48,541 bases of DNA from Methanobacteriota archaeon (GCA_013152685.1 JAADFX010000130.1:13913-62453), one strand, 5' to 3'; counted from the first letter of the stretch, positions 10,095 to 29,287 are shown. The notes: generated from the letters alone by a model not told the origin. Translations and numbers: made by a program.

Positions 10095-10574
10095 CTACTT
10101 CTTTATCCAGTCCGCAATAAACACCTTGTAGGTCCTGCCGAGCCTCTCCCGGGTTATTATCCCCTTCTTCTCCAGATTGAGCAGCAGGGCGCTCACCTTC
10201 GACTTTGAGAAGCCTGTGCGGAAGCGCAGCGAGTCCTGGGTGATGCCCTCATTCTCCCTTATTATCTCTATGAGAAGCGCCTCATCCTCACTCAGGGCGC
10301 GCTCAAGTATGGCGTAGCTCTTGCTGTCCTGCTTCTTCTCCTCCTCGGGCTTTGCCCACATGTAGAATAGGGCGCCAGCGGCTATGCCGGCAATAAAGGA
10401 CAGGGTGAGGCGGTACCTGAGCAGGGAAAGGCTCTCCTCGGTGAGCAGCAGCGAGGCCAGGGAATCCAGGCCAAAGTACACGATGAACACCAGCAGAAAG
10501 GTCGCCAGAACGCGCTCATTCTCCGTGGCCGGCTTTTTTATCTTCATGGTGGTATCCTTATTGGCGCCGGTCAT
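10095..10574 (-). CDS. Membrane-anchored winged-helix (MarR/TrmB-like) DNA-binding protein
   Basis: Two N-terminal TM helices followed by EALLIEIIRENEGITQDSLRFRTGFSKSKVSALLLNLEKKGIITRERLGRTYKV, a wHTH. Confidence 0.6.
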   Translation of the reverse strand: MTGANKDTTMKIKKPATENERVLATFLLVFIVYFGLDSLASLLLTEESLSLLRYRLTLSFIAGIAAGALFYMWAKPEEEKKQDSKSYAILERALSEDEALLIEIIRENEGITQDSLRFRTGFSKSKVSALLLNLEKKGIITRERLGRTYKVFIADWIKK

Positions 10575-10583
10575 ATAAGAAGC

Positions 10584-11774
10584 CTATGGCAGCACTCCGG
10601 CACGCCTAATTATCCCCAGCATCTCCAGGCTGAAGGCCGAAGCCGAGAGCAGGAGCAGAAGGCCGCCCACCATGGAGACGGCGCTCTGGGACAGGTACAT
10701 CCCCAGGGCGAGCAGCACAACACCCGCATTGTAGGCGTAGAAAATCCAGCGAGAGCGCTCCGCGGAGAAGAGCTCCTTGAAGGAGGAGGGCGCCCTCTCC
10801 CGCTCCCTGGGCAGGATCCGCGCCCAAGCAAGCGTCGGGATCACGTGGTACAGCCCCCCGATTACCGTCTGGCCGACAAAGCCCAGGGCGGCCAGGTGGG
10901 CGTGGACTGAGGAGAGCCCCGCCTCAGGAAAGGCTGCCTGTACCAGGCCCAGGAGGAGAACCAGCAGCAGGTAGCCCAGGGCAGCCAGAAAGAACCTGGA
11001 CTCCACGGGCTCTGGCTTGAAGCTCATCCTGGTGGGCGCCGTGTAGCTCTTTACCATGTCGTAGGTGAAGAGGGCGGCTGCTGAGAGGAGGACCGCGCCG
11101 GAGAGGAGGAGAAGCGCCTCAGAGAGCCCGAAGCCGAGCACCATCCCCGCCGCCGAGATGAGGGTGAGGTAGAACACGTAGTCCACCCAGCGCCGGTTGT
11201 ATATGTCCTTGACCACCAGCATGGGGAGCATCCAGGACATGGCGCCGAAGATTATCAGGGTCACCCCGCCCACCAGGGAGAGGTGCACATGGGAAGGGCG
11301 GTAGCCGTAGAGGGCGGGGTTCAGGAGGATCAAAAACCCAAGCGTCGCCCCGAGGCTAAGAAGGACGCTGGCTGCCGAGTAGAACTTGAAGGCATAGTTT
11401 TCCCCCCTGCGCTCCGCGATGGTCGCCAGGATGTTGTAGGTGAAGAGGTAGAAGCACACCAGCAGGAGCAGTGCCCCAGCCGCCGCCACCAGGCGGTGGT
11501 GGGGGTAGCTCAGCGAAAACACCACCAGGCCGGAGTTGAAAAGCCAGAAACTCGCCGAGGCGGCGCGCTTGCTGTGGAGCTCAGCGCCGGTGAGGGTGGG
11601 AACCTGCTGGTACATGGTGGCAATTATAACGCCGCAGACGAACCCCACCAGGGCGAGGTGCACGTGCACAGGCGTGGGAACCGAGAGGCCGGCCAATCCG
11701 GCTAACCCGAGGAGGAGCGCCACAACAAAATACACCAGCGCCGCTGCCAGAAACCGCAGTATTACGGCCGACAT
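10584..11774 (-). CDS. Polytopic (about 12 TM) membrane protein with thrice-repeated H-x-H-L...P-x-L motif; function unknown, possibly haem/metal-binding
   Basis: The 396-aa ORF carries repeats PVHVHLALVGFVCGVIIATMYQQVPTL, PSHVHLSLVGGVTLIIFGAMSWMLPML and SVHAHLAALGFVGQTVIGGLYHVIPTL about 125-135 aa apart. It is co-oriented 200 nt downstream of the HAO-like gene. The CDS is confident; the function is not. Confidence 0.6.
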   Translation of the reverse strand: MSAVILRFLAAALVYFVVALLLGLAGLAGLSVPTPVHVHLALVGFVCGVIIATMYQQVPTLTGAELHSKRAASASFWLFNSGLVVFSLSYPHHRLVAAAGALLLLVCFYLFTYNILATIAERRGENYAFKFYSAASVLLSLGATLGFLILLNPALYGYRPSHVHLSLVGGVTLIIFGAMSWMLPMLVVKDIYNRRWVDYVFYLTLISAAGMVLGFGLSEALLLLSGAVLLSAAALFTYDMVKSYTAPTRMSFKPEPVESRFFLAALGYLLLVLLLGLVQAAFPEAGLSSVHAHLAALGFVGQTVIGGLYHVIPTLAWARILPRERERAPSSFKELFSAERSRWIFYAYNAGVVLLALGMYLSQSAVSMVGGLLLLLSASAFSLEMLGIIRRAGVLP

Positions 11775-11778
11775 AACC

Positions 11779-11916
11779 CTAACCGTGAATCAGCATCGGC
11801 AGGCAGCGGGTGCAGATGTAGTGCTTATCCTGCCGGTGGTAGTACTTTATGAGGGGAACCTCATCCTCACTCCGCTGGCAGTTTTCACACTTCTTCATGC
11901 TTATGAAGATAGCCAT
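11779..11916 (-). CDS. Small zinc-ribbon protein (45 aa; 39 aa from the second ATG), not in the ORF track
   Basis: Reverse translation gives MAIFISMKKCENCQRSEDEVPLIKYYHRQDKHYICTRCLPMLIHG* (CxxC-x24-CxxC). The stop lies 4 nt before the start of the downstream membrane-protein gene. Confidence 0.4.
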   Translation of the reverse strand: MAIFISMKKCENCQRSEDEVPLIKYYHRQDKHYICTRCLPMLIHG

Positions 11917-11948
11917 AGGCGAATAAAAGAGTTTTTGCGAACATGTTC

Positions 11949-11959
11949 AAAAAGAAAAA
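11949..11959 (-). terminator. T-rich tract (TTTTTCTTTTT) after the HAO-like gene stop
   Basis: The minus strand reads TGA-GCTTCCACCC-TTTTTCTTTTT. This is a possible partial terminator between hao and the downstream genes. Confidence 0.3.
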
Positions 11960-11969
11960 GGGTGGAAGC

Positions 11970-13460
11970 TCAGGGCTTCCTCCTTCTCCTGAGCAGCAGC
12001 GCATACCCTGCCACCGGCAGCAGCGCAAGGGCAGCCACTGACGTGGGACCGCACACGCCCTTCTGCTTCTCCAGCTTGGCAACGCGCTCCTCGAGCTCCT
12101 TCTTCTCCCGCTCCATCTCGAGCCACTCTTCCATCATGTTGAGCTTGTCCATCAGCGCATCCACTGCACCGTTCCAGTGGGTCCAGTCGGGCCCCATCAT
12201 GCTGGCGCCCATCCTCCACCTTCTGCCGTCGTGGTGCCAGATGTAGTAGTACATGATCTCCGGAATCTCGTCTATCGGGTTGGACTTGTCTATGAGTCCC
12301 TCCTCGTAGGCGGCGTTGAGGAGCTGCTCCGTGTACTCGTACACCCTGTTGTAGTCCTCCACCACCTTGTCGAAGCTCTCGAAGTAGCCGTCAACCCAGT
12401 CGCTGGCGTGGCACACCCTGCACACCTTCTTCATCTCTGCCCTGCCCCGCTTTGCCTGCTCCAAATCGGGCTTCTGCTCTCCCAGGGGCACCTTGCTGGC
12501 GTCGTCCCACTGGGGCGTCGACTTCTTGGGCTGAAGCTCCCAGTAGAGCCTGGCTCCAACGTCGTGGGTGCTCTCAACCACTCCGCCAAAGCCGGACATG
12601 TGGCAGGTGGCGCAGGTGGGTGCCGCTATGTCCTCGGGACCCCACTGACCAGGGGGCACGTCCCAGTTCCAGTCTTCGCCGCTGCTCGCGTAGATGTTGC
12701 CGTGCTTGCTCTCCTCGTAGATCTCTATCTGCGGATGGTCAGGGCCGAGATGGCACTGGCCGCAGGTCTCGGGCTTCCTCGCTTCGGCTATGCTGAACCT
12801 GTGGCGAGTGTGGCAGGCGGAGCAGGTTCCCATGCTGCCGTCGGGGTTGATCCTGCCTATGCCATTGTTGGGCCAGCCGTCCACCAGATTGCCGTTCTTT
12901 GATATCACGTAGCTTCCGTGGCACTCCAGGCAGCCCAGCACCTGGTTCTCCTGGTGGTAGTTCTCGTCATCCAGGAGGCCGATGCGCTTCAGGGCACCGC
13001 TGTCCGGGAACAGCGGCGTGAGCTGCCCCCTTATGAAGTCCCTGGGGTTGTTCTCAATGGCGGTCTCCAGCTTCAGCGGGTCCTTGCCCTGCTTCACCAT
13101 CTCCCTGTACCAGGGCTTCAGCGGCCCTATGAAGGCTGCCCAGGCGTGCTTGCTCCTTGAAAACTCCGCAACCTGCTTTGGATGACAGCTCTCGCAGTAG
13201 CGCGGTGATACCACTGCCGTGACCCTGTAGCCCATGTGCTCAAAGCCGGAGGGGTCGTCATCCTTGGCGAGGTGGCAAACATAACACTTCACTCCCACCT
13301 TGCTGTGCTTACTCTCCTCCCACTGCTTCACTATCCCTGGGGTTACGGTGTCGTGACAGCTCAGACAGGGCGCCCCTGGCTCTCTGAATTCCTGTGCGTT
13401 AGCTGTACTGAGCAACATCGCTGCAGCTATCGCAAAAATTAAGAGATGCTTTAACCTCAT
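11970..13460 (-). CDS. hao: HAO-family (hydroxylamine oxidoreductase-like) octahaem c-type cytochrome with CGP-CTERM-like anchor
   Basis: Signal peptide MRLKHLLIFAIAAAMLLSTANA. Eight CxxCH sites are present: CLSCH, CYVCH, CESCH, CLECH, CSACH, CGQCH, CATCH and CRVCH. HAO/HDH-like blocks include VKQWEESKHSKVGVKCYVCH and YIWHHDGRRWRMGASMMGPDWTHWNG. The C-terminus has a coiled coil followed by KGVCGPTSVAALALLPVAGYALLLRRRRKP. Confidence 0.85.
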   Translation of the reverse strand: MRLKHLLIFAIAAAMLLSTANAQEFREPGAPCLSCHDTVTPGIVKQWEESKHSKVGVKCYVCHLAKDDDPSGFEHMGYRVTAVVSPRYCESCHPKQVAEFSRSKHAWAAFIGPLKPWYREMVKQGKDPLKLETAIENNPRDFIRGQLTPLFPDSGALKRIGLLDDENYHQENQVLGCLECHGSYVISKNGNLVDGWPNNGIGRINPDGSMGTCSACHTRHRFSIAEARKPETCGQCHLGPDHPQIEIYEESKHGNIYASSGEDWNWDVPPGQWGPEDIAAPTCATCHMSGFGGVVESTHDVGARLYWELQPKKSTPQWDDASKVPLGEQKPDLEQAKRGRAEMKKVCRVCHASDWVDGYFESFDKVVEDYNRVYEYTEQLLNAAYEEGLIDKSNPIDEIPEIMYYYIWHHDGRRWRMGASMMGPDWTHWNGAVDALMDKLNMMEEWLEMEREKKELEERVAKLEKQKGVCGPTSVAALALLPVAGYALLLRRRRKP

Positions 13461-13503
13461 ATTCTCACCCAGTTAACAATCTCCCACTCATATATTAAAA
13501 AGG

Positions 13504-13544
13504 TTTTTTTAAAAAGTGATTTAAATAAAGATTGTAGTGTTAAA
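13504..13544 (-). promoter_or_regulatory. hao upstream composite element TTTAACACTA-N19-TTTTTAAAAAAA (gene orientation)
   Basis: Read directly. The plus strand is TTTTTTTAAAAA-GTGATTTAAATAAAGATTG-TAGTGTTAAA. N19 contains the TATA-like TATTTAAAT. The proximal end lies 43 nt from the hao ATG. The same outer blocks occur with the same spacing upstream of napA. Confidence 0.55.
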
Positions 13545-13551
13545 ATTTAGT

Positions 13552-14652
13552 TTAGGTTGATAGGCGCACCCTGTGCCTCAATTCGGGAAGCGGTGACGAG
13601 GCGGCGTACACCGTACCGGCGCAACCCTCGAGCTCCTCCTCCCTTTTAGCCGTGAGCACGCGGGGCTTTAATTCCTCATCCCTGCATGTGAGGACAACTT
13701 CATCCACAACCCCTGAATTTAAAGAAAATTTAAGCAGCGCCGTAACTGCACCGCCGTCCTGCCCTCCGCCACGGGTTGCCCTGGCAGCCAGGATGCGCCT
13801 GTACCTGCCCAGGTGCTCCCTCCGTAGCTCCCCCAGCTCCAGCTGCTCCTCCAGCGCCCTCAGAGGCAGCGCTGTTCTGGTGCAGGCAGCGTAGCACAGG
13901 CTGCAGTCCTGGGGGCACCTCCCCCTCAGCCTGGGCATGCCGTTCCTCATCTCCAGCTCCGAACATGCGGCGCTGCACGCACCGCACGCGTCGCACAGAC
14001 CGGAGACCACGATATCCCTCCACAGCTCCCGGAAGCCCCTGCCCTCGGTCCTGCTCAGCGCCTCCTCCAGCGAGCCCAGATCTCTGGTGGCGTGGTGGGG
14101 CACCTCATCCCCCTGCTCCACCCTGCTCTGTATCCTCCTGAGGCTCCTCTCAAACTTGGCGCGGGCGACCCGCTGGAGCTCCTCCACGCCCGCCTCGCCC
14201 ACCTCCATCAGCTCCAGAAGGCCCGCCTCCTCAGCACCATGCAGCACCTCCTCGCCCCGGGGGGTGCGCACAATCAGGGTGGTCCACCCCTCCGGGGAGC
14301 CGGTGCTACCTGCGCTAATGTCCGCCAGCTCTGAGGTGAAATCCAGGCACATCCTGCACGCCATCTTCACGTACTTCCTCATCTCCCCCAGGGGAAACTC
14401 CAGCTCCATGCCCCGGGCTGAAACCCTCACCCGGTCCCCGGAAATTCTCATCCGGGCCACCTCCTCTGGCGCCACGCCCCGCGCCTCCAGGAACCCTGCC
14501 ATGCAGGGGTAGCTCCAGTTGCCCATGCAGAAGAGGCCCACCACCAGCTCCACCCGCTCCACCAGCCTCCTCCCCAGCAGCCTGCCCAGCGCCTGCAGCT
14601 TTCGCAGCCCCTGCACCTGACACGGCGTCCCCACGAAGCCCAGCGCTCTCAC
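13552..14652 (-). CDS. FrhB/FdhB-family (F420-reducing hydrogenase beta-like) flavo-FeS protein, circularly permuted, with internal 2x[4Fe-4S] segment
   Basis: The N-terminus starts in the FrhB C-domain (GTPCQVQGLRKL, LFCMGNW, CRMCLDFTSELADISAGSTGSPEGWTTLIVRT). Next come CDACGACSAAC and CPQDCSLCYAAC. The FrhB N-domain (GGGQDGGAVTALL...AGTVYAASSP) comes last. The ATGA overlap with napD indicates translational coupling. Confidence 0.75.
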   Translation of the reverse strand: MRALGFVGTPCQVQGLRKLQALGRLLGRRLVERVELVVGLFCMGNWSYPCMAGFLEARGVAPEEVARMRISGDRVRVSARGMELEFPLGEMRKYVKMACRMCLDFTSELADISAGSTGSPEGWTTLIVRTPRGEEVLHGAEEAGLLELMEVGEAGVEELQRVARAKFERSLRRIQSRVEQGDEVPHHATRDLGSLEEALSRTEGRGFRELWRDIVVSGLCDACGACSAACSELEMRNGMPRLRGRCPQDCSLCYAACTRTALPLRALEEQLELGELRREHLGRYRRILAARATRGGGQDGGAVTALLKFSLNSGVVDEVVLTCRDEELKPRVLTAKREEELEGCAGTVYAASSPLPELRHRVRLST

Positions 14653-14891
14653 TCCACCTCATCCTCCACGTTCAGGTACACCAGCTGGAAGTCCACCACG
14701 TCCTCCCACTTCTCTATCTCCTCCGAGAGCTTCTTGAGCTCCTTTGTGCTTCTCCCCTCCATCACCACTGCAATTCCCCGGGTGCCCCTCCCCTTAACCT
14801 CGACTCCCGGGAGGTTCCTGAGGTTCCTCTCCACCTCGTCCTCCCTCCCGGGCACCGGCACAATTACCGCTCCAGATATGGGCAAATCCAT
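14649..14891 (-). CDS. napD: NapD-like Tat-proofreading chaperone
   Basis: 80 aa from the ATG at 14891, which overlaps the napH TGA within GGAGGTGATGG. The sequence ISGAVIVPVPGREDEVERNLRNLPGVEVKG...GIAVVMEGRSTKELKKLSEEIEKWEDVVDFQLVY matches the NapD ferredoxin-like pattern. The longer track ORF overlaps napH. Confidence 0.72.
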   Translation of the reverse strand: MDLPISGAVIVPVPGREDEVERNLRNLPGVEVKGRGTRGIAVVMEGRSTKELKKLSEEIEKWEDVVDFQLVYLNVEDEVE

Positions 14892-15736
14892 CACCTCCTT
14901 ACCGCATAGTACAGGGCGCCCGTTGGGCAGGCGTCCCTGCACAGTCCACAATTATCACAGGTTCTATCATTAAAATCCTTATCTATACCGAGCTCCACAG
15001 GGCGCAGACCATAGGGGCAGGCGATGTTGCACTCACCGCAGAAGATGCAGCGCTCCATCCTCTTGGAGATTCTCACCACCCTCTTCGCCCCCAGCAGCGA
15101 CAGGAAGCCTCCCGCCGGGCACAGGGAGCGGCACCAGATCCGCCTGGCGGCGAGCGCCTCGAGCAGGACCACGCCCGTCAGGAGGAGAAGGCCGCCGTAG
15201 CTCGGGGCGCCGTAGGTGAGGACATAGAAGATCTCCCTTCCCAGCACGTGGGGCAGGTCGAAGGCGGACACCACCGGAGTGGCAAAAAAGAAGCTCAGGA
15301 GCAGCGCAAACCCCAGCAGGTGGTAGCGGTAGTCCGCCACCCTGAGGCTGAGCCTCACGCCGCGCGAGCTGAGGAAGCTCCCAAGCCTCTGGTTGAGCTC
15401 CAGCAGGAACCCGGCGGGGCAGATCCAGGAGCAGAAGACCCTGCCCAGGAGGAGGGTAATCGCCAGGGGCAGAAGCGCCGCCGCCAGCAGCGGCAGGTAA
15501 ACCACCTTCGCCGCCAGCATCGCCTCCAGCGCCGCGAGGGGGTGGGTAACGGTGAAGCCGTAGAAGCTGAAGCTCCAGGTGTCGCCCCACACGCGGGACA
15601 CCCTGGGCGGCGGGAGCTCCCCCATGGCTATCCGGGATGGTGCCCACTCTATCGGATTCTGGGAGTACAGGGGGACGGCGACCAGCACCGCCAGGACCAG
15701 CACCTGAAACACGCGCCTCAACCTGCGGACTTCCAT
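14891..15736 (-). CDS. napH: NapH-type membrane FeS quinol dehydrogenase subunit
   Basis: The start MEVRRLRRVFQ lies at 15736, just after the napG stop. Four TM helices are present. CxxxCP motifs are CSWICPAG and CRSLCPAGG. C-terminal ferredoxin motifs are CIFCGECNIACP and CDNCGLCRDACP. Confidence 0.85.
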   Translation of the reverse strand: MEVRRLRRVFQVLVLAVLVAVPLYSQNPIEWAPSRIAMGELPPPRVSRVWGDTWSFSFYGFTVTHPLAALEAMLAAKVVYLPLLAAALLPLAITLLLGRVFCSWICPAGFLLELNQRLGSFLSSRGVRLSLRVADYRYHLLGFALLLSFFFATPVVSAFDLPHVLGREIFYVLTYGAPSYGGLLLLTGVVLLEALAARRIWCRSLCPAGGFLSLLGAKRVVRISKRMERCIFCGECNIACPYGLRPVELGIDKDFNDRTCDNCGLCRDACPTGALYYAVRR

Positions 15737-15737
15737 G

Positions 15738-16478
15738 CTAGACCCTCTTAACCACCCGCACCGCGGGAAGCTCAACACCCGGCCCCGCCCTGCCTATCAC
15801 ATTCCTCACCATGGCGGCGTACCTCTCCTCGAAGTAGGTGAGCTTCCTCCCCGGCTCCATCGTCGCCCTGGCAATCCTCTCATTCACCGGGCAGACGTAG
15901 TTGCACATCCCGCATCCGACGCAGTGCCTCTCATTCACGTGGGGCCTTATTCCCACGGCACCCTCTATCACCTCATTCGGCGGGTAGGCGAGCATGGCGT
16001 CATCCCTGAGGGGGCAGTTGTAGTAGCACTCCCCGCAGGAGTCGTACTGCCACGCCAGGCACAGGTCGCGGTTTAGCACAGAAACGCCCATCTTCAGCTC
16101 CTCTGGAAGTGCCAGGAGGGTGTCCCTGTCGTTCCTTATCTTCCTGAGGGCGCCCGTGGGGCACGCCTCGCCGCACAGCAGATACTCGCTCAGGGGCTCG
16201 TCCCTGCCCTCACTGGTTCGCCTGAGGCAGAGGTAGCAGGGGGTCTCCACGGGGTCAATGTAGGGCGTCGCCACCTTCGCGCCCGCGCTGATATCGAAGA
16301 ACTTTATGGAGTCGTAGGGGCACGCCTCACCGCACTTTCCACACCTGATGCAGCGGGCCAGAAAATCACGCGCCGCCCCCGGGGGGCGTATTGCCGGGGC
16401 GTCGCCTTCTCCGAGCCCTATGCCAGCCAGGCCGATGAGCACCACACCCTTGAGGAAGCTCCTGCGCTTAAGCTTCAC
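15738..16478 (-). CDS. napG: NapG-type Tat-exported poly-ferredoxin
   Basis: Tat signal KRRSFLKGVVLIGLAG. The sequence contains IRPPGA...F...CIRCGKCGEACP plus three further 4Fe-4S motifs (CGEACPTGA, CGECYYNCP, CVGCGMCNYVCP). It overlaps the upstream gene by 4 nt. Confidence 0.85.
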   Translation of the reverse strand: MKLKRRSFLKGVVLIGLAGIGLGEGDAPAIRPPGAARDFLARCIRCGKCGEACPYDSIKFFDISAGAKVATPYIDPVETPCYLCLRRTSEGRDEPLSEYLLCGEACPTGALRKIRNDRDTLLALPEELKMGVSVLNRDLCLAWQYDSCGECYYNCPLRDDAMLAYPPNEVIEGAVGIRPHVNERHCVGCGMCNYVCPVNERIARATMEPGRKLTYFEERYAAMVRNVIGRAGPGVELPAVRVVKRV

Positions 16479-16906
16479 CAGCCACCCTCCCTCTCAATCT
16501 CAATAATCGCAACCTCGTAGTGGCGCCCCTTTATCTGGTAGGGCACCACCACCCTGCCCCGCACCACCACCTCGGAGCCCTGCATCGGCATTGTTCCCCG
16601 GGTGATGACCCATATCTCACCCGTGCCGTCGTTCAGCAGATAGGGCTGCTCATCCACAAACTCAAAGGCAAGCCCCGGGAGTGCGGTGCCCCGCAGCACC
16701 ACCTCCATGCCCTCGTAGGCCTCCGGGTTGTCCAGAATATCGGCGACCCTGACACCGCCGCCCGCATCACCCGCCGGCGCCGGCTCTGGTTGTGGCGTCG
16801 CTACGGGCGCCTCCACCGCCTCCCCCACAGCCTCAACCACCGCTTCCTCCTTCTCAACGCAGCCGGCAAGAACCAGAAGTATCAGCAGCACTGCATAGAG
16901 CCGCAT
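16475..16906 (-). CDS. Predicted lipoprotein with A/P/E-rich linker and OB-fold-like C-terminal domain (unknown function) in the napB position
   Basis: Lipobox LLVLAGC, a low-complexity linker and then a beta-rich domain (MEVVLRGTA...GEIWVITRG...VVVRGRVVVPYQIKGRHYEVAIIEIE). There is no CxxCH, so it is not NapB. The stop overlaps the napG start. Confidence 0.55.
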   Translation of the reverse strand: MRLYAVLLILLVLAGCVEKEEAVVEAVGEAVEAPVATPQPEPAPAGDAGGGVRVADILDNPEAYEGMEVVLRGTALPGLAFEFVDEQPYLLNDGTGEIWVITRGTMPMQGSEVVVRGRVVVPYQIKGRHYEVAIIEIEREGGW

Positions 16907-16993
16907 GCAACCACCGCCGTTTTTAATTTAAGTATGTGATGCCAATAATTTATAAAGATAACTTTAAAATAAAATTCAGTCCCCCTATTTTTT

Positions 16994-17003
16994 AAAAGAA
17001 AAG
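16994..17003 (-). terminator. T-rich tract (CTTTTCTTTT) after the napA stop
   Basis: The minus strand after TAG reads GCCACCTCCCAACTTTTCTTTTAAAAAA. The 109-nt AT-rich spacer before the next gene also holds TATA-like CTTTATAAA, so napA and the downstream genes may be separate or attenuated transcription units. Confidence 0.3.
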
Positions 17004-17015
17004 TTGGGAGGTGGC

Positions 17016-19493
17016 CTACGCCTTGACCACCTTTATCTTGCACACCTTGTAGTCAGGCTCCGCCGCCTTTGACCAGCTCTCGGGCACGTCTATGGTGAGG
17101 TCGTTGATCAGCTTGGTCTCATCGAACCAGGGCACGAAGACCATGCCCGGCTGAGCGCGCTCTGTAACCCAGGCGGGGAGGACGATGCTGCCGCGCGGTG
17201 ATATCAGCTTTATCTTCTCACCGCTCTTGACCCCCAGCTTCCTGGCATCGCTCGGGTGTATCTCCACGTAGGCGGCCGGGTTCAGCTCACGCAGCAGGCG
17301 CACGCGCATGGTCATTGTTCCGGTGTGCCAGTGCTCTATAACCCTGCCGGTGTTCAGCACGAAGGGATAGCTGGCGTCCGGCATCTCGTAGTCCAGCTTC
17401 GCCGCGAGAGCGCGGATTACCGCCTTGTCCTTGGTGTTCTTGAGCTTGTGGCCTCCGTAGTAGTTTATCGGCCCTGGATAGCCGTGCTCCTCCATGTGCT
17501 GGTCGTACAGCGTGACGTAGCCCGTGGCGTACCTCTTCTTGTCCCTTCCGAACACCCTTATCGCGTACTCCCTGGAGATGTAGCGCTTGTTGCTTCCGCG
17601 GTTGTCAAACTCGGTGCTCGGGCAGGGCCACTGGACGCCGCCCGCGTGGGCCTTGAGCTTCTCGTAGGTGGCGCCGTAGAGGTCAACATCCTGTCCCCTG
17701 GTGAGCACCCTGTACTCGTTCCACGCGGCCTCCTCTGGCGTCATCTCGCCCTTCTTAACCCTGGGGTCGTCGTAGAAGCCCAGGCCGTAGACCTCTATGG
17801 TGTCCAGCACCTTGAGCGGGTCCTGCCTGTCCCTGATGGCATACTTAACCTTCCTTCCCAGCTTCTGGGCTATCCTCCTGGCCACCTCATTTATCTGCCA
17901 GAAGTCGGGCTTTGCCTCTCCCGGCGGGTCCACCAGCTTGTTTATAAACTGGCTCCTCCTGTCTGTCTGCCCCATGACGCCCTCCTTCTCCACCCACATG
18001 GCGCTGGGCAGTATGACCGTCGCCACCTCAGTGGTCTTGTTGGGGTAGATGTCGCTCACCACAGTGAAGGCCTTCATCATGGCCTCCGCATAGCGGTCGC
18101 AGTTGGGCAGGCTCTGCGCCGGGTTGGTGGTGTTTATCCATATCGCCTTTATCTCGCCCTTCTCCAGGCGCATGAACATGTTAACCGCCGGGCCCGTGGG
18201 CTTCTTGGGCATCTGCTCAACGGGCACGCCCCAGACCTCTGCCACCTCCTGCCTGTGCTTGGGATTCGCCACCGCCCTGTGCCCCGGCAGGATGTGGGTG
18301 AGTCCGCCCTGCTCGCGAGTGCCGCCGCAGGCGTTGGGCTGCCCCGTGAGGCTGAGGGAGTCACAGCCGGGCTTGCCTATCTTGCCTGTGAGCAGGTGCA
18401 GGTTGTGAACCTGGCAGTTGAGCTCCACGCCCTGGGTGCGCTGGTTCAAACCCATGGTCCACATGCTGAGGGCAGTGTAGCCGCGCCGCCCAAACCACCG
18501 CGCCGCCAGGCGTATGTCCTCAGCGGGCACCCCGGTTATGTCCTCCACCTTCTCCGGGGTGTAGTCCTTGAGGAACTCCCTGAAGCCGTCCAGGTCCATC
18601 TCCTCGCCGGCCGGACCAAGGCCCACCCTGAAGGTGCAGTACTTGAGGTGCTCGTAGTCCACCATGTCCTCCTCTATTATCACATACGCCATGGCGTTCA
18701 GCAGGTACATGTCGGTACCCGGCTTGAACTTCAGGTGGAGGTCCGCATACCTCGCTGTCGGAGTTGTGCGCGGGTCGGCCACTATAACCCTCACCCTGTC
18801 CGGATAGGCGCTCTTCCTGTCTATCACCCTGCGGAAGAGCATCGGGTGCTGCTCCGCCATGTTTGAGCCTATGATGAAGATGGTGTCCGCCAGGTCTATG
18901 TCGTCGTAGCTTCCCGCAGGCTCATCTGCGCCGAAGGTGTTGAGGTAGCCTCCAACCGCAGAAGCCATGCACAGCCTGGGGTTGCCCTCCACGTTGGCGG
19001 TGCCAATAAGCCCCTTGAAGAGCTTGTTGGCGGCGTAGGCTTCCTGGGTTGTGTTCTGTCCAGAGCCGTACCACGCGACGCTGTCGGGACCGTACTCCTT
19101 GATGTACTTGGCAAAGGTGTCGGCAATCAGCTCCAGCGCCTCGTCCCAGCTGACCTCCTTGTAGCTTCCATCCGGCTGACGCACCATGGGCTTGGTCAGC
19201 CTCTCCTTCCCGCCGCCACCGTACATTATGTGGGGCAGCGAGTACCCCTTCATGCAGAGTCTGCCGAAGTTTATCGGGGAATCCGCATCGCCCTTTACTG
19301 CCACCACCTTACCGTCACGCACGCCCACAAGTACAGTGCAGCCGGTGCCGCAGAACCTGCACTGGGCGCGCCCGAAGGTTATTCCCCCATCTCCCGGCGC
19401 CGCCATCGCGGGGGCACTCATGCCGGCTGCAAGCATCGCTGCAGTGGCGGCTGAAGCCTTTATGAACTCACGTCTGCTCATGCTTATTCCCAT
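17016..19493 (-). CDS. napA: Periplasmic-type nitrate reductase catalytic subunit NapA (Mo-bisPGD, Tat-exported)
   Basis: GGAGGTGA lies 5 nt before ATG 19493. Tat signal SRREFIKASAATAAMLAAGMSAPAMA. The N-terminal [4Fe-4S] motif is CRFCGTGCTVLV...C. The Mo-ligand region NPRLCMASAVGGYLNTFG resembles NapA. The napG/H/D context supports the call. Confidence 0.9.
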   Translation of the reverse strand: MGISMSRREFIKASAATAAMLAAGMSAPAMAAPGDGGITFGRAQCRFCGTGCTVLVGVRDGKVVAVKGDADSPINFGRLCMKGYSLPHIMYGGGGKERLTKPMVRQPDGSYKEVSWDEALELIADTFAKYIKEYGPDSVAWYGSGQNTTQEAYAANKLFKGLIGTANVEGNPRLCMASAVGGYLNTFGADEPAGSYDDIDLADTIFIIGSNMAEQHPMLFRRVIDRKSAYPDRVRVIVADPRTTPTARYADLHLKFKPGTDMYLLNAMAYVIIEEDMVDYEHLKYCTFRVGLGPAGEEMDLDGFREFLKDYTPEKVEDITGVPAEDIRLAARWFGRRGYTALSMWTMGLNQRTQGVELNCQVHNLHLLTGKIGKPGCDSLSLTGQPNACGGTREQGGLTHILPGHRAVANPKHRQEVAEVWGVPVEQMPKKPTGPAVNMFMRLEKGEIKAIWINTTNPAQSLPNCDRYAEAMMKAFTVVSDIYPNKTTEVATVILPSAMWVEKEGVMGQTDRRSQFINKLVDPPGEAKPDFWQINEVARRIAQKLGRKVKYAIRDRQDPLKVLDTIEVYGLGFYDDPRVKKGEMTPEEAAWNEYRVLTRGQDVDLYGATYEKLKAHAGGVQWPCPSTEFDNRGSNKRYISREYAIRVFGRDKKRYATGYVTLYDQHMEEHGYPGPINYYGGHKLKNTKDKAVIRALAAKLDYEMPDASYPFVLNTGRVIEHWHTGTMTMRVRLLRELNPAAYVEIHPSDARKLGVKSGEKIKLISPRGSIVLPAWVTERAQPGMVFVPWFDETKLINDLTIDVPESWSKAAEPDYKVCKIKVVKA

Positions 19494-19546
19494 ACTTTCA
19501 CCTCCGCCTCTGTATAATATTCATGGATTTTTAGGTTAATAAAACC

Positions 19547-19587
19547 TTTTTTTAAAAATTTTATTTATATCCCTCCATAGTGTTAAA
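19547..19587 (-). promoter_or_regulatory. napA upstream composite element TTTAACACTA-N19-TTTTTAAAAAAA (gene orientation)
   Basis: The plus strand is TTTTTTTAAAAA-TTTTATTTATATCCCTCCA-TAGTGTTAAA. N19 holds the TATA-like ATATAAATA. The proximal end lies 53 nt from the napA ATG. The outer blocks and the spacing are identical to the hao element. Confidence 0.55.
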
Positions 19588-19658
19588 TTAATTTTTATAT
19601 ACCCCCTCTTCGTGAACCTTTACGATTTAATTGGATATTTAATTTCAAATGATTATAT

Positions 19659-20318
19659 TTAAATGTTACCTTCCAGCGACAGCATGGTCATGAAGGCGCG
19701 CTTCCCCGTGTCGGAGATGTAGTAGTGGCGGTTTTCATCCTGGGCTATCAGCCCCGCCTGCTTTAGCACCCTCAGGTGAAAGCCGAGCTTTGCGGGCTCA
19801 TCGATGTCCAGGTAGTTCATTATGTCGGTAAAGCGCGCCTTCCCCTTTGCGTGGAGGTACTCTATTATCCTGCGGCGTATCGGGTTTGAGAGGGACTTGA
19901 GCACGTCCTTCCCGGTCTCCCTGACGCCCGCCTTCTCCCGCACCGCCTCCTCTATCCTGGTCTCCTCCAGCAGGCGGAGGATCTTGTTCCTGATCTCCTC
20001 CACCTTGAAGGGCTTGAGGATGTAGTCGCTGGCTCCCATCTTCATCGCCCTCACGGCGCTGTCCACTGTGCCAAAGGCGGTGATAATTATGACCTTTGTG
20101 AGAGGGGAGTACTTCTTGACGTTCCTCAGCACCTCCATCCCGTCGGCTCCCGGCATCACCAGGTCGGTGATGACCAGGTCAAACTTCTGCTTTTTTATCA
20201 TGTTTATGGCCTTGACCCCGTCCTCTGCGATTTTGGGGGAGTAGCCCTTCTTCTCCAGCAGAATCTTCAATCCCTCTCTGAGCTTCGGGTCATCCTCCAC
20301 TATCAGTATCTCCTGCAT
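19659..20318 (-). CDS. Response regulator: REC domain plus ArsR-type winged-helix output
   Basis: The start [13 protein letters not shown] lies at 20318. The phospho-acceptor context is DLVITDLVMPGADG. The C-terminal LSNPIRRRIIEYLHAKGKARFTDIM...KLGFHLRVLKQAGLI is an ArsR/SmtB-like wHTH. Confidence 0.82.
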   Translation of the reverse strand: MQEILIVEDDPKLREGLKILLEKKGYSPKIAEDGVKAINMIKKQKFDLVITDLVMPGADGMEVLRNVKKYSPLTKVIIITAFGTVDSAVRAMKMGASDYILKPFKVEEIRNKILRLLEETRIEEAVREKAGVRETGKDVLKSLSNPIRRRIIEYLHAKGKARFTDIMNYLDIDEPAKLGFHLRVLKQAGLIAQDENRHYYISDTGKRAFMTMLSLEGNI

Positions 20319-21753
20319 CTGACTCACCCGGCAGATATATTCTGAAGGTGGTGCCCCTGCCCACCTCGCTCTCAACCTCTATCTCTCCTCCGTGCTTCTC
20401 AATTATGCTGTAGGTGATGTAGAGGCCGAGCCCCGTGCCCTTGCCCACCTCCTTCGTGGTGAAGAAGGGGTCAAAAATCTTCCCGAGGTGCTCCTCGGGG
20501 ATTCCCACACCGGTGTCCCTGATTTCCACCACCACCCTGCCATCACTCCTGTAGGTGCGTATCGTCAGCTTGCCGCCTTCCTTCATCGCGTCAATTGCAT
20601 TGGTGGCTATGTTTATGAAGGCATCCAGCAGCTTTGAGGAGTCTCCCTTTATCTCCGGAAGCCTCTCGTCCAGGTCCAGCTCAAGCTTTATGTTTTTGTA
20701 CTGTAATTGGGGTTTGAGGATATTTAACATTTTCTTGATTATTTCGTTAACCTGGGCAACCTCATTTTTGAACTCCCGCTGCCTTGAGAAGTCGAGCAGC
20801 CCCTGAACCACCTTAGATGCGAGGGACGCCTCCTCCTCTATAATCTCCAGCACCTTCCTGGTCTCCTCATCCTTCACCTCCTCCCTGTGGATCTGGGAGT
20901 AGAGAATTATGTTCGCCAGGGGGTTGTTTATCTGATGAGCTATCCCGGCGGCCAGCTTGCCCACCGTGGCCATCTTCTCACTCTGTATCACCTGGGCCTC
21001 CTTGTTCTTGAGCTCCTCAACCATGCTGTTAAAAACCCTTGCGAGCTCTCCGAGCTCGTCTTCCTTGTCCACATCTACCCTGGCGGAGTAGTCCCGCTTT
21101 GAGAGTTTTATGGCAGCCTCCTTCACCTTGTTGAGGGGGGTGATCACCACGAAGCGCATTATCCCGAGTATTGCGAGCATTATTCCCAGGGAGAGGAGGA
21201 AGCCGTAGAAGATGAGCTGCCTCCTCGTCCTCTCCAGGGACGCCATTACCTCGCTCACGGGGATTTCCACCACAAGAGCGCCGCGCAGGTCGCCCTCCCG
21301 GTACCCCTGGTCCACGTGGCACTTCAGGCAGGGCTTCTCTATGTACAGGGGGACGGCGTACTCGTAGAAATCCGAGCTTACGGCGTACCTCTCCCCCTCA
21401 CCCCCCTGCATAAACTCCATCAGCACCCTCCTCTCAAACTCGTCGGCGGGGTAGTTATCCGGGTCCCTGGGCTTGAAGGTCACCAGCTTTATCTTGTAGT
21501 CGTACATCTCATTGGAAAGCTCGGAGAGCTCGTAGGTGAGCTCTGCCGGCACAGGCATCACCCTCTCCCTGTTTTCCGCCGCCCACAGCCTCACCAGCAG
21601 GATCTGGTCTGTAACACTCTTTGCCTGCTGCCGCAGCTGCTCCATGATGTTCCTCTCGTGCACCTCGCTCATGTAGTAGAAAATTCCCTGAACTGAGAGG
21701 AACACTATTATGCCCACGGCAAGCATCACCTTTGTGCCAACGCTCGCCTTCAT
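20290..21753 (-). CDS. Sensor histidine kinase with extracytoplasmic haem-c (CxxCH, DUF3365/Tll0287-like) sensor, HAMP, HisKA and HATPase domains
   Basis: TM1 is followed by an exported domain of about 150 aa ending [31 protein letters not shown] (CLKCH at 21316-21330). TM2 and HAMP follow. The H-box is [12 protein letters not shown]. The N, G1 and G2 boxes are [16 protein letters not shown] and GKGTGLGL. Confidence 0.85.
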
Positions 21754-22745
21754 TCGCCCACCTCGGGGGGTACCACGCGCACTGGAAGGCGCTCCGGGAG
21801 ATGGCGCAGATCCAGGACCACTATTCCGCCGTCGTAGTCTGCAACATACGCACTGCCCTCCGCCACCGCTATGCCGTAGGCGTTTCCGGGGGTGTCGTAC
21901 TCCGCCACCGGCTCAAGCCTGCCGTCCTCGTGGATCCTGAGCAGCGCCACGCCGCTGTTCGCGAGGGTTACCAGCAGGTAGTCCCTGTAGCTGGCTAGCC
22001 GCAGGGCAAAGCCCGGAAGCTGGAGGTTCTGCTGGTGAACAAGCCTGCCGTCCGGAGATATCCTGTACACATCCACCCCGGCATCTGAGCTAGCCACGTA
22101 CGCGTGGGAGCCCCTGACCAGGACGTCGTGGGCAACACTGCTCGTGGGAACAAAGCCCAGGAACTCCAGGGAGCCGTTCTTCCGGAGCCTGGCCACGTAC
22201 AGCCGCATTGTGAAGTCGGCCAGGTACAGCGTCCTGTCCCTTACGCTCACGCCCTTTGGGTAGCTGTAGTTGCCGGGCTTGTAGAACCTCTGGCTGAGGG
22301 TGGCAAGGTCAAGAACCACCAGGCCAGAGGCCACACAGGCGAGGAAGGCACTGTTGCCGGAGATAACAATCTTCTGGGCGGTGTGGTTCAGCACCACCTC
22401 CGCCAGGAGCTGCGGCTGGGCGGGGGTGCTCACGTCCAGCAGGTAAAGCTTCCCCAGGGTGTCGCTGACGTAGAGCGTCCTCCCGGACACCGCCAGGGTC
22501 TGGGCCTCGCCGGGGGTTCTGAAGCCCCCTATCCTGCGCAGGCTTCCCGCCCCTATTGAGAAGATGTCCAGCCCCCAGGGTGAGACCGCATATAAGTACT
22601 CGTCGTACACCAGAACATCGTAGTAGTAGTGGGGCTTTTGAGGACTGATGTCCGGCTGATATCCCTGATTCTCGCCGGACACGCATCCTGCAAGCACCAG
22701 CAGCAGTGGAATCGCCACCCAGTAGAGGGTCCTATGTCCACACAT
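21750..22745 (-). CDS. LVIVD-repeat beta-propeller lipoprotein
   Basis: Lipobox LLLVLAGC. The repeated units are G.a..v.v.g..aYva....Gl.v.D.s (YLLDVS, LVVLDLA, GVDVYRI, GIVVLDL). The ATGA overlap with the kinase gene couples the two. A start at 22772 is also possible. Confidence 0.7.
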   Translation of the reverse strand: MCGHRTLYWVAIPLLLVLAGCVSGENQGYQPDISPQKPHYYYDVLVYDEYLYAVSPWGLDIFSIGAGSLRRIGGFRTPGEAQTLAVSGRTLYVSDTLGKLYLLDVSTPAQPQLLAEVVLNHTAQKIVISGNSAFLACVASGLVVLDLATLSQRFYKPGNYSYPKGVSVRDRTLYLADFTMRLYVARLRKNGSLEFLGFVPTSSVAHDVLVRGSHAYVASSDAGVDVYRISPDGRLVHQQNLQLPGFALRLASYRDYLLVTLANSGVALLRIHEDGRLEPVAEYDTPGNAYGIAVAEGSAYVADYDGGIVVLDLRHLPERLPVRVVPPEVGE

Positions 22746-22893
22746 CTTCTCCTCTAAGGCCACAGCGCACATCTGGTAAATTTTACTTAAATTTTTACTT
22801 ATTTATCTTTTAATATAAAATTCCCTTTATATAAAATTTCTTTTAAAATAAAGTTTTAAGGACTGGAGGTTCAAAAGATACTACGGTGATGGT

Positions 22894-23034
22894 ATGCTTG
22901 TGGGAAACACCGAAATCCTGCTGGTGATTGCGCTGGTGGTCCTCCTCTTCGGAGCCGGGAAGATTCCGGAGCTCGCCCGCAGCCTCGGGAGGGCCAGGGT
23001 TGAGTTCAGACGCGGCATGGAAGAGGAGAAGTAG
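22894..23034 (+). CDS. tatA: Twin-arginine translocase subunit TatA/E (46 aa, not in the ORF track)
   Basis: Translation gives MLVGNTEILLVIALVVLLFGAGKIPELARSLGRARVEFRRGMEEEK*. This is the TatA TM helix, the F-G hinge and an amphipathic helix. GGTGAT lies just upstream. Confidence 0.78.
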   Translation: MLVGNTEILLVIALVVLLFGAGKIPELARSLGRARVEFRRGMEEEK

Positions 23035-23067: not shown

Positions 23068-23715
23068 ATGAGCAAAATACTGATAGTGGATGACGACAGG
23101 CACACGACGGGGGTTCTGGAAAAAGCCCTCCGCAGGAGCGGATTCCAGGTCATCACCGCCGAGAGCGCCACGGAGGGTATAAACAGGCTCGTGGAGGAGC
23201 AGCCCGACCTGGTGCTCCTGGACCTCGTGCTCCCTGACATGCGCGGACTGCAGGCCCTGGATGAGATAAGCAGGCTCTCCCCGGAGACAAAGGTCATAAT
23301 AATAAGCGCCTTCCCCTCCATAGGCGACGTGGTGGAGGCCATGAAGCTGGGAGCGAGCGATGTGCTGGTGAAGCCCTTCAACGTGGACGAGCTGGTGAGC
23401 ATAGTAAAGAAGACCCTGGAGGAGGCCCGGCTGGAGCGCAGGATTGAGGCCAAGATAAGCGACACGGTGATAAAGGCGCTCTCAAACCCCATCCGCAAGA
23501 GGATAGCCTTCTACCTGCTGCATGCCGGTGTCAGGAGGTTCTCCGAGATAGCCAGGAGCACAGAGATGGACGACCCCTCCAAGCTCAGCTTTCACCTGCG
23601 AGTCCTGATAGACGCCGGGATAGTGTGCAAGAACAGGGCTGGGCAGTACTCCCTCACAGGCGACGGCAGGGCGATAGTGGAGAGGCTCCTGCTCAGGCTG
23701 GAGGAGGAGGTCTGA
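23068..23715 (+). CDS. Response regulator: REC domain plus ArsR-type winged-helix output (paralog of 19659-20318)
   Basis: MSKILIVDDD..., DLVLLDLVLPDMRG, and C-terminal LSNPIRKRIAFYLLHAGVRRFSEIA...KLSFHLRVLIDAGIV. The architecture and motifs match the other regulator. Confidence 0.85.
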   Translation: MSKILIVDDDRHTTGVLEKALRRSGFQVITAESATEGINRLVEEQPDLVLLDLVLPDMRGLQALDEISRLSPETKVIIISAFPSIGDVVEAMKLGASDVLVKPFNVDELVSIVKKTLEEARLERRIEAKISDTVIKALSNPIRKRIAFYLLHAGVRRFSEIARSTEMDDPSKLSFHLRVLIDAGIVCKNRAGQYSLTGDGRAIVERLLLRLEEEV

Positions 23716-23841
23716 GCACAGCCCCTCCACCCGCTGCCCAGCGGAGTATTATAAAAATTTTTTTAAAACAAGCTTTTTATATCCGCATATTTAAAAAATG
23801 TATAGATTTAAATAAAAATGTTTATTGTCCGGGTGGCGTCG

Positions 23842-28162: not shown

Positions 28163-29155
28163 ATGCAGCCAAAGATTCTGGTTGTTGATGACGAGGAGCT
28201 AATACGCCTCAGTCTCAGGAAGCTTCTCGAAAAGCACGGCTATCCCGTGGAGGTCGCCAGCTCCGCCTCCGAGGCTCTGGAAAAGCTGAAGGCGGACGGG
28301 TTCCGCATAGTCATCACCGACATAATGATGCCAGACATGGACGGGATAGAGCTCCTCAGGAAGATAAAGGAGCAGGACAGGGGCATTTACGTCATAATGA
28401 TCACCGCCTACGCCAGCCTGGAGCGCGCCATTGCCAGCCTAAAGTTCGGCGCCAGCGACTTCATACAGAAGCCCTACGAGAACAGGGAGATCATCGAGGC
28501 GGTTAAGAAGGCCGTCGAGACCCTCGAGGAGGAGAGCAGGGGGCCCGAGCTCGCCGTGTCGGTGAAGCCTGCCGTTATAGACGCCTTCCGCAGGACATGC
28601 CATGAGAGCGTCGCCGAACTTGCGGAGGCTGTCAGGAAGATAACCGGCATAGACACGAGCATAAAAATTGAGGGGCCCGTGGTGGAGGAGATAGAGAACT
28701 TCCCCAACCTGGTGGGAGGGGAGGGGATCGCCATGGTGGGCTCCTACGCCAGCCTCTACGGCGCCCTCAGCGGGAGCGCCACCCTGCTCTTCCCCATAGA
28801 GGATGCGATTCGCTTCATTGAGCTCCTCTCCGACAAGAAGGTCGACTACGCCGACTTTCCCAACCCCGACGACAGGGAGGTGCTCAAGGAGGTGGGGAGC
28901 ATAATCTCCGAGGACCACACCAGGAGGCTGAGGGAGCTCGCCGGTATAGACGTGAAGATTACCCCGGCAAGCTTCGTGGACCTGGTGTCGGGCAACTTTG
29001 TCTCCTTCCTGGAGCTGCGCACCGGCAGGAAGAGGCAGTACTACTTCGCCCACAAGCTGCTCTTTCAGATAGGGGGCGCCAAGCAGATACTCGGCTACCT
29101 GCTGCTGATTTTCGACCTGAGGAACATAGGGGTGCTTAACAGCCGCTTTCAGTAG
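28163..29155 (+). CDS. Response-regulator receiver protein with C-terminal domain of about 190 aa of uncertain family (weakly CheC/CheX-like)
   Basis: The REC domain shows ILVVDDEE, IVITDIMMPDMDG and KP. The C-terminal half has two pseudo-repeats with an EVG-x-I-type helix (LKEVGSIISE). It lacks a clear CheC E-x2-N motif. Confidence 0.65.
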   Translation: MQPKILVVDDEELIRLSLRKLLEKHGYPVEVASSASEALEKLKADGFRIVITDIMMPDMDGIELLRKIKEQDRGIYVIMITAYASLERAIASLKFGASDFIQKPYENREIIEAVKKAVETLEEESRGPELAVSVKPAVIDAFRRTCHESVAELAEAVRKITGIDTSIKIEGPVVEEIENFPNLVGGEGIAMVGSYASLYGALSGSATLLFPIEDAIRFIELLSDKKVDYADFPNPDDREVLKEVGSIISEDHTRRLRELAGIDVKITPASFVDLVSGNFVSFLELRTGRKRQYYFAHKLLFQIGGAKQILGYLLLIFDLRNIGVLNSRFQ

Positions 29156-29287
29156 ATAACCATCAACTTTTTATAGTACCCCCCGTTTAAAAATAGTTGA
29201 AGGGCAGCGCAGGGTTTTGGTCGGATTTCAGGGGTCTCCGGCACGCCGCCGCCCGCACACTGTGTGAGGCAGCAGGCGGATATAAAA

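Follow-up and report, generated by a model that had tools for sequence, protein, structure and literature searches.

The nap-hao locus and its genes

The subject of this analysis is a 48,541-nucleotide stretch of archaeal DNA (GCA_013152685.1, JAADFX010000130.1:13913-62453), referred to below as the window, and a 41-bp element that occurs in it twice. One copy lies upstream of napA, the gene for the catalytic subunit of a periplasmic nitrate reductase, and the other lies upstream of hao, the gene for a multihaem cytochrome c of the hydroxylamine oxidoreductase (HAO) family. It appears that both copies belong to a longer promoter module that is conserved among related archaea and may act as a control site for a two-component system encoded next to napA. 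The window belongs to an uncultured hot-subsurface archaeon of the Hydrothermarchaeota that resembles Candidatus (Ca.) Pyrohabitans, and the closest homologues of its NapA and of its sensor kinase are found in metagenome-assembled genomes (MAGs) of Candidatus Hydrothermarchaeota and Ca. Pyrohabitans. Published surveys of Hydrothermarchaeota genomes mention NapADGH and are silent on its regulation (PMC6775978).

All coordinates are those of the window, and features lie on the minus strand unless stated otherwise. The two-component genes form an operon whose first gene encodes an LVIVD-repeat beta-propeller lipoprotein (21750..22745; assigned from domains and synteny). It is followed by a sensor histidine kinase (HK; 20290..21753), which has a periplasmic Tll0287-like domain with a CLKCH haem-c motif and then HAMP, HisKA, and HATPase domains. 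The CLKCH haem-c binding motif sits between two transmembrane helices. The periplasmic CLKCH domain suggests that the kinase is a haem-based sensor of redox state, nitric oxide, or nitrite. The third gene (19659..20318), directly upstream of napA, encodes the response regulator RR1, which consists of an N-terminal REC domain and a C-terminal ArsR-like winged helix (DUF7347); this arrangement is called REC-wHTH (wHTH, winged helix-turn-helix) below. The operon is therefore written as LVIVD-HK-RR1. A second REC-wHTH response regulator, RR2 (ArsR-like, DUF7347; 23068-23715, plus strand), is encoded on the other side of the operon, after tatA (22894-23034, plus strand) and before the molybdenum cofactor (Moco) genes moeA and fmdE (from 23842, plus strand).

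The napA gene (17016..19493), whose product carries a Tat signal, heads a cluster that is continued (13552-16906) by ORF143 (16475-16906), napG (15738-16478), napH (14891-15778), napD (14649-14951), and a gene for an FrhB-like protein (13552-14652). The hao gene (11970..13460) comes next, and the name given by NCBI to the same protein is "hydroxylamine oxidoreductase". The HAO-family cytochrome is a probable nitrite/hydroxylamine reductase partner of Nap. These findings agree with the gene assignments of a first-pass annotation of the window, namely napA, an HAO-like gene, and adjacent genes for REC-wHTH regulators. The two Pfam domains of the FrhB-like protein have changed places, with FrhB_FdhB_C (residues 2-151) ahead of FrhB_FdhB_N (288-357) and a ferredoxin-like stretch separating them, and this protein may feed F420-derived electrons to NapGH. 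Outside the Hydrothermarchaeota, the closest relatives of NapA are bacterial (MAGs of Nitrospirae, Desulfobulbaceae, and Planctomycetota; 70-76% identity), which suggests that nap was laterally transferred between bacteria and this archaeal lineage. An exact look-up of the NapA of the window returned no record under that start codon.

A composite element upstream of napA and hao

Read in gene orientation, the element has the form TTTAACACTA-N19-TTTTTAAAAAAA, in which a distal block of 10 nucleotides (nt) is separated by 19 nt (N19) from a proximal block, T5A7. The first-pass annotation had described an identical 41-bp composite, with the same blocks and the same spacing, at both genes. An exact pattern search agrees with this description, as it finds two exact matches in the window, both on the minus strand (13504-13544 at hao and 19547-19587 at napA). 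In the napA copy the distal block covers 19578-19587, the N19 covers 19559-19577, and the T5A7 covers 19547-19558; the corresponding parts of the hao copy lie at 13535-13544, 13516-13534, and 13504-13515. Other details of that description are likewise borne out. The proximal ends are 43 nt from the ATG of hao (13460) and 53 nt from the ATG of napA (19493), the N19 segments contain TATA-like cores that read CAATCTTTATTTAAATCAC and TGGAGGGATATAAATAAAA, and the distal block is missing from the other intergenic regions; TTTAACACTA occurs nowhere else in the window, even when 1 mismatch is permitted. Looser boxes, in which at least four T are followed by at least four A, are present at 16988, 22841, and 23758, in intergenic regions that had earlier been inspected for the distal block alone.

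Is the pair of elements a chance occurrence? None of 100 dinucleotide-preserving shuffles contained a match to the 41-nt pattern with 3 mismatches permitted. Pure chance as the source of the pair is ruled out by the conservation of the T/A core together with its specificity, both of which are described below; conservation does not, however, back the last 3-5 bases of the distal 10-mer identity. Extended dyad symmetry around the T/A junction was also considered; it was weakly above that of shuffles (P from 0.009 to 0.76 per promoter) and is not claimed.

Conservation of the promoter module across lineages

Syntenic loci were compared in seven non-redundant lineages, which are the window itself, L005/L207, L006/L212/L213, L205/L206, L209-L211, L001, and L002. 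NapA in the compared lineages is 81-93% identical to that of the window, and the promoters were aligned on the T/A junction. One further locus, L004, was left out of the promoter comparison; its napA starts 5 nt behind another gene and has no promoter there.

The most conserved part of the element is the T/A run. A T5A5 core is invariant in 7/7 lineages at both promoters, with run lengths of T5-6 and A5-8, while neighbouring positions drift. The run also keeps its length class and its distance to the ATG across lineages. The box that follows the A-run, outside of the 41 bp, is nearly invariant in all lineages as well, reading G(G/A)TTTTAT at napA and CT(T/A)TTTA at hao. The N19 retains across lineages only a TWTAAAY box, located 9-16 nt upstream of the T/A junction in all of them. 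In the window this box is TATAAAT at napA (19563-19569), where TATAAAY is conserved across lineages, and TTTAAAT at hao (13519-13525). In the distal block, bases 1-5 (TTTAA) are conserved with majority fractions of 0.77 and 0.91, sometimes with a 1-nt shift. Bases 6-10 are not conserved (majority fractions of 0.46 and 0.60) and are about as variable as background. A tabulation by eye of the first base of the distal box against the last base of the N19 box revealed no consistent co-variation across lineages.

Conservation at orthologous promoters covers the T5A5 core, the T-rich box, TTTAA, and TWTAAAY, but it does not extend to distal bases 6-10. The 41 bp are not conserved as a unit. Even L005, the closest relative, departs from the CACTA half of the distal block and reads TTTAACATGG at napA and TTTAACACCC at hao, and a weight matrix restricted to the upstream part fails to connect the napA and hao promoter families. 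In L006, L205, and L209 the distal block reads TTTAACTA(T/A) at napA and TTTAATTTT at hao. Within the clade formed by the window and L005, TTTAACA is common to both promoters. The chance of the three further matching distal bases in the window is estimated at ~0.02-0.04, with five or more genomes examined. CACTA is specific to this genome, and part of the 10/10 distal identity is probably a coincidence. The exact 10-nt distal identity is particular to this genome, and the conserved module includes just the TTTAA(Y) of the distal block.

Probable position of the core promoter

Other promoters of the window read AAAA, then 0-3 nt, and then TTTATATA(C)C. A promoter was regarded as pinned if its gene has no Shine-Dalgarno sequence and its TATA centre lies 26-27 nt from the ATG. 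Three promoters are pinned, and they show A4-5, then 0-3 nt, and then TATA; they are those of the genes for LysR (AAAAA-TATAAATA) and MobB (AAAA-TTTATATCC) and that of a 39-amino-acid open reading frame (ORF) downstream of hao (AAAAA-CTC-TTTTATTC). The 39-amino-acid ORF is apparently leaderless because it lacks a Shine-Dalgarno sequence. Its promoter is conserved in four lineages and nearly equals the AAAAAAA-GG-TTTTATTA of napA. The A7-GG-TTTTATTA of napA and the A7-CC-TTTTTAAT of hao closely fit the pinned pattern of an A-rich B recognition element (BRE) directly 5' of a T/A-rich octamer.

The same arrangement of A-run, two bases, and TATA is present in Methanoperedens loci that encode a homologous kinase. 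There, T-rich-CTAAAAA-TC-TTTTATATATATG, with a textbook TATA, precedes tatA and an Arr/Psr-like molybdoenzyme operon, and the full-length REC-wHTH regulator is 42-43% identical to RR1. The match to the pinned promoters and to the Methanoperedens promoters favours the assignment of the A-run as BRE and of the downstream octamer as TATA. At napA, the likely TATA is contained in GG-TTTTATTA-ACC after the A-run (19534..19546), with the A-run as BRE; this assignment is based on conservation and on the local promoter pattern. At hao, the likely TATA is contained in CC-TTTTTAATATAT (13490..13503). The predicted start of napA transcription is near 19514, which would give a leader of ~21 nt with the Shine-Dalgarno sequence GGAGGTGA (19498-19505). 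The predicted start of hao is near 13471, with the Shine-Dalgarno sequence GGTGA at 13465-13469. A position of the T5A7 block between TATA and the start is less likely than one at BRE/TATA or directly upstream of it.

Specificity and co-occurrence with the two-component system

Scans for specificity covered the window and 205 kb of related Hydrothermarchaeota loci. In the 205 kb, runs of at least five T followed by at least five A were found at napA promoters, at hao promoters, and at the moeA/fmdE promoter of L002 only. The looser form (at least four T, at least four A) occurs at five sites in the window, which are the hao and napA promoters, a position 19 nt past the napA stop, the region between tatA and the LVIVD gene, and a position upstream of moeA. 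It was seen in none of at least 12 other promoter-bearing intergenic regions of the window, as judged by reading. The site past napA is a T4A6 box in minus-strand reading (16988..16997), upstream of ORF143 and conserved in L005 and L207, and may act as a terminator or as an internal promoter element. The site between tatA-RR2 and the divergent LVIVD operon is a T4A4 box (22841..22848, no strand assigned) with TATA-like boxes on either side, in a region that is near-identical across lineages. The site upstream of moeA-fmdE is a T7A4 box (23758..23768, plus strand), and the CAAGC-TTTTTATATCC behind it agrees with the local TATA consensus; the counterpart of this box in L002 is a T6A7 at the divergent moeA/fmdE promoter. 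A weight matrix trained on hao promoters placed the napA, moeA, and tatA promoters among its top matches in ~250 kb of scanned strand, and the reverse holds.

The tatA/LVIVD intergenic region (22773-22893) as a whole contains ~60 bp, CCTTAAAACTTTATTTTAAAAGAAATTTTATATAAAGG..., that are near-identical across lineages. Equivalent regions lie at about 6620-6750 in L001 and at about 8880-9000 in L005, and also in L006, L205, L209, and L212. This region carries dense regulatory information, because the flanking LVIVD proteins are just 46-70% identical.

The module is present at every recovered napA promoter that follows LVIVD-HK-RR1. A contrasting case is L208 (GCA_054030135.1), whose NapA falls in the same 90% cluster. 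L208 has a compact napA-napD-hao operon that lacks napGH and the FrhB-like gene, a divergent gene for a K+ channel lies upstream of its napA, and the 13.5 kb covered, on a contig that ends ~1 kb upstream of napA, include no two-component genes. Boxes of at least four T and at least four A are missing from all of the 13.5 kb; the napA promoter is a plain TTTTTATATAC, and the moeA promoter is box-free too. This contrast would fit a link between the module and the two-component system, as one case. A metagenome scan with the relaxed pattern TTTAACACTA-N17-21-TTTTTAAAA gave, among the matches listed, chance ones in AT-rich DNA and none from this organism (highest GC content 0.55).

The first-pass annotation had suggested a shared regulon element with the adjacent REC-wHTH proteins as candidate binders. 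In favour of this suggestion, the two promoters have a specific architecture in common, which is conserved in seven lineages and whose T/A run is confined to promoters of the cluster of nap, hao, Tat, Moco, and two-component genes. Because the architecture is conserved, confined to the cluster, and missing from the L208 napA, a shared regulon element with the adjacent REC-wHTH proteins as candidate binders is reasonable. It is plausible, judged from sequence comparison and backed by co-occurrence with the two-component genes, that the REC-wHTH regulators have a shared control site at napA and hao. The element itself appears to be a further instance of a familiar kind, a shared promoter/operator module, in which the half with the T/A run is conserved and cluster-specific.

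Candidate regulators

RR1 is the prime candidate binder of the module. RR1 proteins are 82-97% identical across five genomes, and the predicted recognition helix, PAKLGFHLRVLKQAGLI, is invariant. Since this helix is invariant, the target of RR1 is expected among the conserved boxes and not in the variable CACTA. RR2 and a third paralogue, RR3, which is found in L005 and L006, have related recognition helices. A sequence search of the PDB with RR1 returned matches to the REC domain only, with no solved homologue over the wHTH part.

A second, paralogous two-component operon lies beside another molybdopterin oxidoreductase (L005 3536-7112; L006 3900-7537; L212 1703-5277). It encodes a PhnD-like binding protein, a HAMP-GAF kinase, and a REC-DUF7347 regulator. 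A homologous module also precedes tatA and the Arr/Psr-like molybdoenzyme in the Methanoperedens loci L007, L018, and L022. The REC-DUF7347 regulator family may generally control periplasmic molybdoenzymes.

A proposed mechanism and its alternatives

How might the module work? In the model favoured here, which is judged to have about an even chance of being correct, the conserved promoter module of napA and hao is a control site for the adjacent two-component system, with the A-run/BRE geometry described above. The 41 bp would form the upstream two-thirds of a conserved module of ~55-60 bp in Pyrohabitans-like Hydrothermarchaeota. This module would drive napA and the HAO-like gene, and looser versions would drive tatA-RR2, LVIVD-HK-RR1, and moeA. 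In gene orientation the module reads TTTAAY (about -34, counted from the T/A junction), TWTAAAY (about -15), an invariant T5-6|A5-8 run, two bases, and then TTTTAT(TA) or TTTTTAAT. The A-run and the downstream T-rich octamer would function as BRE and TATA, and the T-run together with the TWTAAAY and TTTAAY boxes would form an upstream regulatory region. The haem-c sensor kinase would phosphorylate the adjacent REC-wHTH regulators, RR1 and possibly RR2. In phosphorylated form they would then occupy the palindromic T/A run or a site adjoining it and assist the loading of TFB/TBP. The predicted outcome is a joint switch-on of the nitrate reductase, its nitrite-reducing partner, Tat export, Moco supply, and the genes of the system itself.

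Several observations weigh against this model. Masking of the T/A run and of the downstream box makes cross-retrieval of promoters by the matrix fail, and so it is these two parts, not the distal block or the N19, that account for the likeness between the napA and hao promoters. The masked upstream parts show no detectable similarity, and so the case for an upstream regulator site rests on short AT-rich boxes. The predicted leader of hao is just ~11 nt. At tatA, the TTTATATA that precedes the T/A run makes a better TATA than the box behind the run, and this favours a TATA upstream of the run at that promoter. The missing T-run of L208 is also explained by its divergent upstream gene. Finally, runs of at least five T are found past the stops of FrhB, RR2, hao, and an unrelated cytochrome gene.

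The last of these observations is part of an explanation by generic signals, which accounts for much of the architecture but is unlikely overall. The T-run would be the oligo-T terminator of the upstream co-directional gene (RR1, FrhB, RR2, or napA), the A-run would be a BRE, and the octamer would be a TATA. The N19 box on the opposite strand would be a second TATA in a back-to-back bidirectional promoter, the likeness of napA and hao would reflect shared ancestry or a strong-promoter design, and the distal 10-mer would be TTTAAC plus chance. In line with a bidirectional promoter, the opposite strand reads A5-N3-4-TTTATAT(C) at napA and A5-GNG-RTTTAAA at hao, both of which agree with the local pattern of BRE and TATA. 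In L006 and L212 the convergent RR3 and RR2 genes, too, have a T5A4 box between them, where a promoter is not expected, and the background-like variability of distal positions 6-10 and the failure of the upstream-only matrix are what generic signals would produce. The T5 run lies 37 nt past the FrhB stop and ~100 nt past the RR1 stop, and position alone is no proof of termination. However, the combination of at least five T and at least five A was never found at other terminator-promoter junctions or at other promoters in the 205 kb, and the local BRE is usually A4, not A5-8. Generic signals also do not account for the invariance of the run length class and of the distance to the ATG, or for T/A boxes in divergent regions without a gene end (tatA/LVIVD, and moeA/fmdE in L002). 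Furthermore, the promoters that carry the box serve a coherent set of functions (Nap, Hao, Tat, Moco, and the two-component system).

The geometry proposed in the first-pass annotation, in which the TATA lies in the N19 (ATATAAAT / TATTTAAAT), the distal block is an activator site just upstream of a TATA without BRE, and T5A7 is an operator or promoter-proximal element between TATA and the start, is improbable. It draws on the TWTAAAY box that lies upstream of the T/A junction in all lineages and on the tatA and moeA promoters, which have a canonical TATA in that position (TTTATATAAAA, TTTTATAAAAAAA or TATTATAAAAA). A weak BRE is typical of activator-dependent archaeal promoters. However, the N19 cores are preceded by GGAGGG or CAATCT and lack the A-rich BRE of the pinned promoters, and in L002 they degrade to TGTAAAC / GTTAAAC while the downstream A-run-NN-TTTTAT is intact. 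This geometry would also imply leaders of ~36-47 nt, and the proposed activator site lacks conservation in its CACTA half. A TATA in the N19 with T5A7 downstream of it is thus probably wrong, and the distal block, which had been placed just upstream of BRE/TATA, is probably located ~65-75 nt upstream of the predicted start instead.

It is very unlikely that the module is read by a factor other than RR1 and RR2, such as the MarR-like protein encoded at 10095-10574 or an alternative TBP/TFB pair with a distinct basal specificity that prefers a long T/A-run TATA; TATA boxes of the TTTTTAAA type are in use in other archaea and the MarR-like gene is syntenic with the cluster in all lineages, but the loci examined showed no paralogue of TBP or TFB, there is no specific connection between the MarR-like gene and the promoters of napA and hao, and the MarR-like gene follows a conserved palindrome of its own, T5-GAACATGTTCGC-A5, which is a better candidate site for its product.

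Other features of the window

Downstream of hao, the palindrome appears within TTTTT-GAACATGTTCGC-AAAAA (11932-11953), between the hao stop and the AAAAA-CTC-TTTTATTC promoter. It is near-identical in four lineages and is also located downstream of hao in L005, L006, and L001. It could form a terminator hairpin, or it could serve another regulator as operator, perhaps the MarR-like protein, whose gene is syntenic. The 39-amino-acid CxxC...CxxC ORF that follows (11779-11898), MKKCENCQRSEDEVPLIKYYHRQDKHYICTRCLPMLIHG, is conserved and has two CxxC pairs and a zinc-ribbon-like look, with no Pfam match. In all lineages it precedes the genes for a COX1/NnrS-like membrane protein (10584-11774 in the window) and the MarR-like protein.

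A different element, CATTTAAATA-N-AATCG-TTGAA (19640-19665), overlaps the RR1 stop codon. It is conserved at the DNA level in four lineages, in which the ends of the reading frame differ (NI* vs G*), and it includes a perfect TTTAAATA box. No conserved RNA structure was predicted for the spacer between RR1 and napA, with no consensus pairs on either strand, and a search against Rfam identified two tRNAs only in the window. On the plus strand, a 330-amino-acid protein (28163-29155) has an N-terminal REC domain and ~200 residues without a Pfam match, and it is followed by an 883-amino-acid protein with TPR and beta-propeller regions (29264-31915). The remainder of the window contains archaeal housekeeping genes, including those for PheRS, GGGP synthase, Dph2, and Nre, and the two tRNAs.

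Relation to known systems and significance

The closest archaeal parallel to the regulators considered here is FilI/FilR1 of Methanosaeta harundinacea, in which the regulator likewise combines REC with an ArsR-related winged helix (PMC3991700). According to passages of that report, FilR1 binds its own promoter and target metabolic promoters, phosphorylation raises its affinity, and it acts positively; the searched passages give no nucleotide-level binding motif (PMC3991700). The two systems differ in domain order (wHTH-DUF1724-REC in FilR1, REC-wHTH with DUF7347 here), in targets (methanogenesis genes versus the candidate Nap/Hao genes), and in the sensor, which is a cytoplasmic acyl-homoserine-lactone (AHL) synthase kinase in FilI and a periplasmic haem-c kinase here.

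The NarX-NarL and NarQ-NarP systems that control bacterial nap and nrf are similar in that two-component genes lie beside nitrate/nitrite reductase genes and promoters have a motif in common. However, the bacterial regulator has a NarL/FixJ helix-turn-helix, whereas the regulators here have an ArsR-like wHTH. Unlike in the Nar systems, the kinase here has a Tll0287-like CxxCH sensing domain, and the promoters are of the archaeal BRE/TATA type. Neither upstream region contains the NarL heptamer TACYYMT, a 7-2-7 site, or an FNR box. As in archaeal promoters with upstream sites, an A-rich stretch abuts an octamer at a fixed distance from the gene, with short conserved boxes upstream. The A-run here differs from the usual archaeal promoter in its unusual length (5-8) and in its palindromic fusion with a T-run, which is not found at the other promoters of these genomes. 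The run also resembles archaeal oligo-T terminators, in that at least five T on the sense strand lie downstream of a co-directional gene (FrhB, RR2, or hao), but it is invariant, fused to an A-run, at a fixed distance from the start codon, and present in divergent regions without a gene end.

A broader proposal, which is tentative and carries considerable doubt, is that the T5|A5-8 palindrome with TTTAAY/TWTAAAY is the recognition code of an uncharacterised archaeal REC-wHTH (DUF7347) family. Together with a haem-c (Tll0287-like) kinase, this family would activate the genes for Nap, an HAO-type nitrite reductase, Tat export, and Moco synthesis, forming an archaeal counterpart of NarXL made from unrelated parts, and its relatives would control other periplasmic molybdoenzymes in Methanoperedens.

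If the box is only a terminator with a core promoter, the finding would be ordinary. If it is an operator, it would reveal the way in which a two-component system of archaea acts on a BRE/TATA promoter, and it would permit prediction of a nitrate-ammonification regulon in uncultured archaea of crustal fluids. The locus offers a compact test system, every part of which can be synthesised from MAG sequence: a pair of paralogous REC-wHTH regulators, a single haem-c kinase, and at least four candidate target promoters that have a sharply defined conserved box. Response regulators that bind DNA are rare in archaea (PMC5847659), and the main value of the module is that it provides a concrete, testable target for this rare class of archaeal response regulators.

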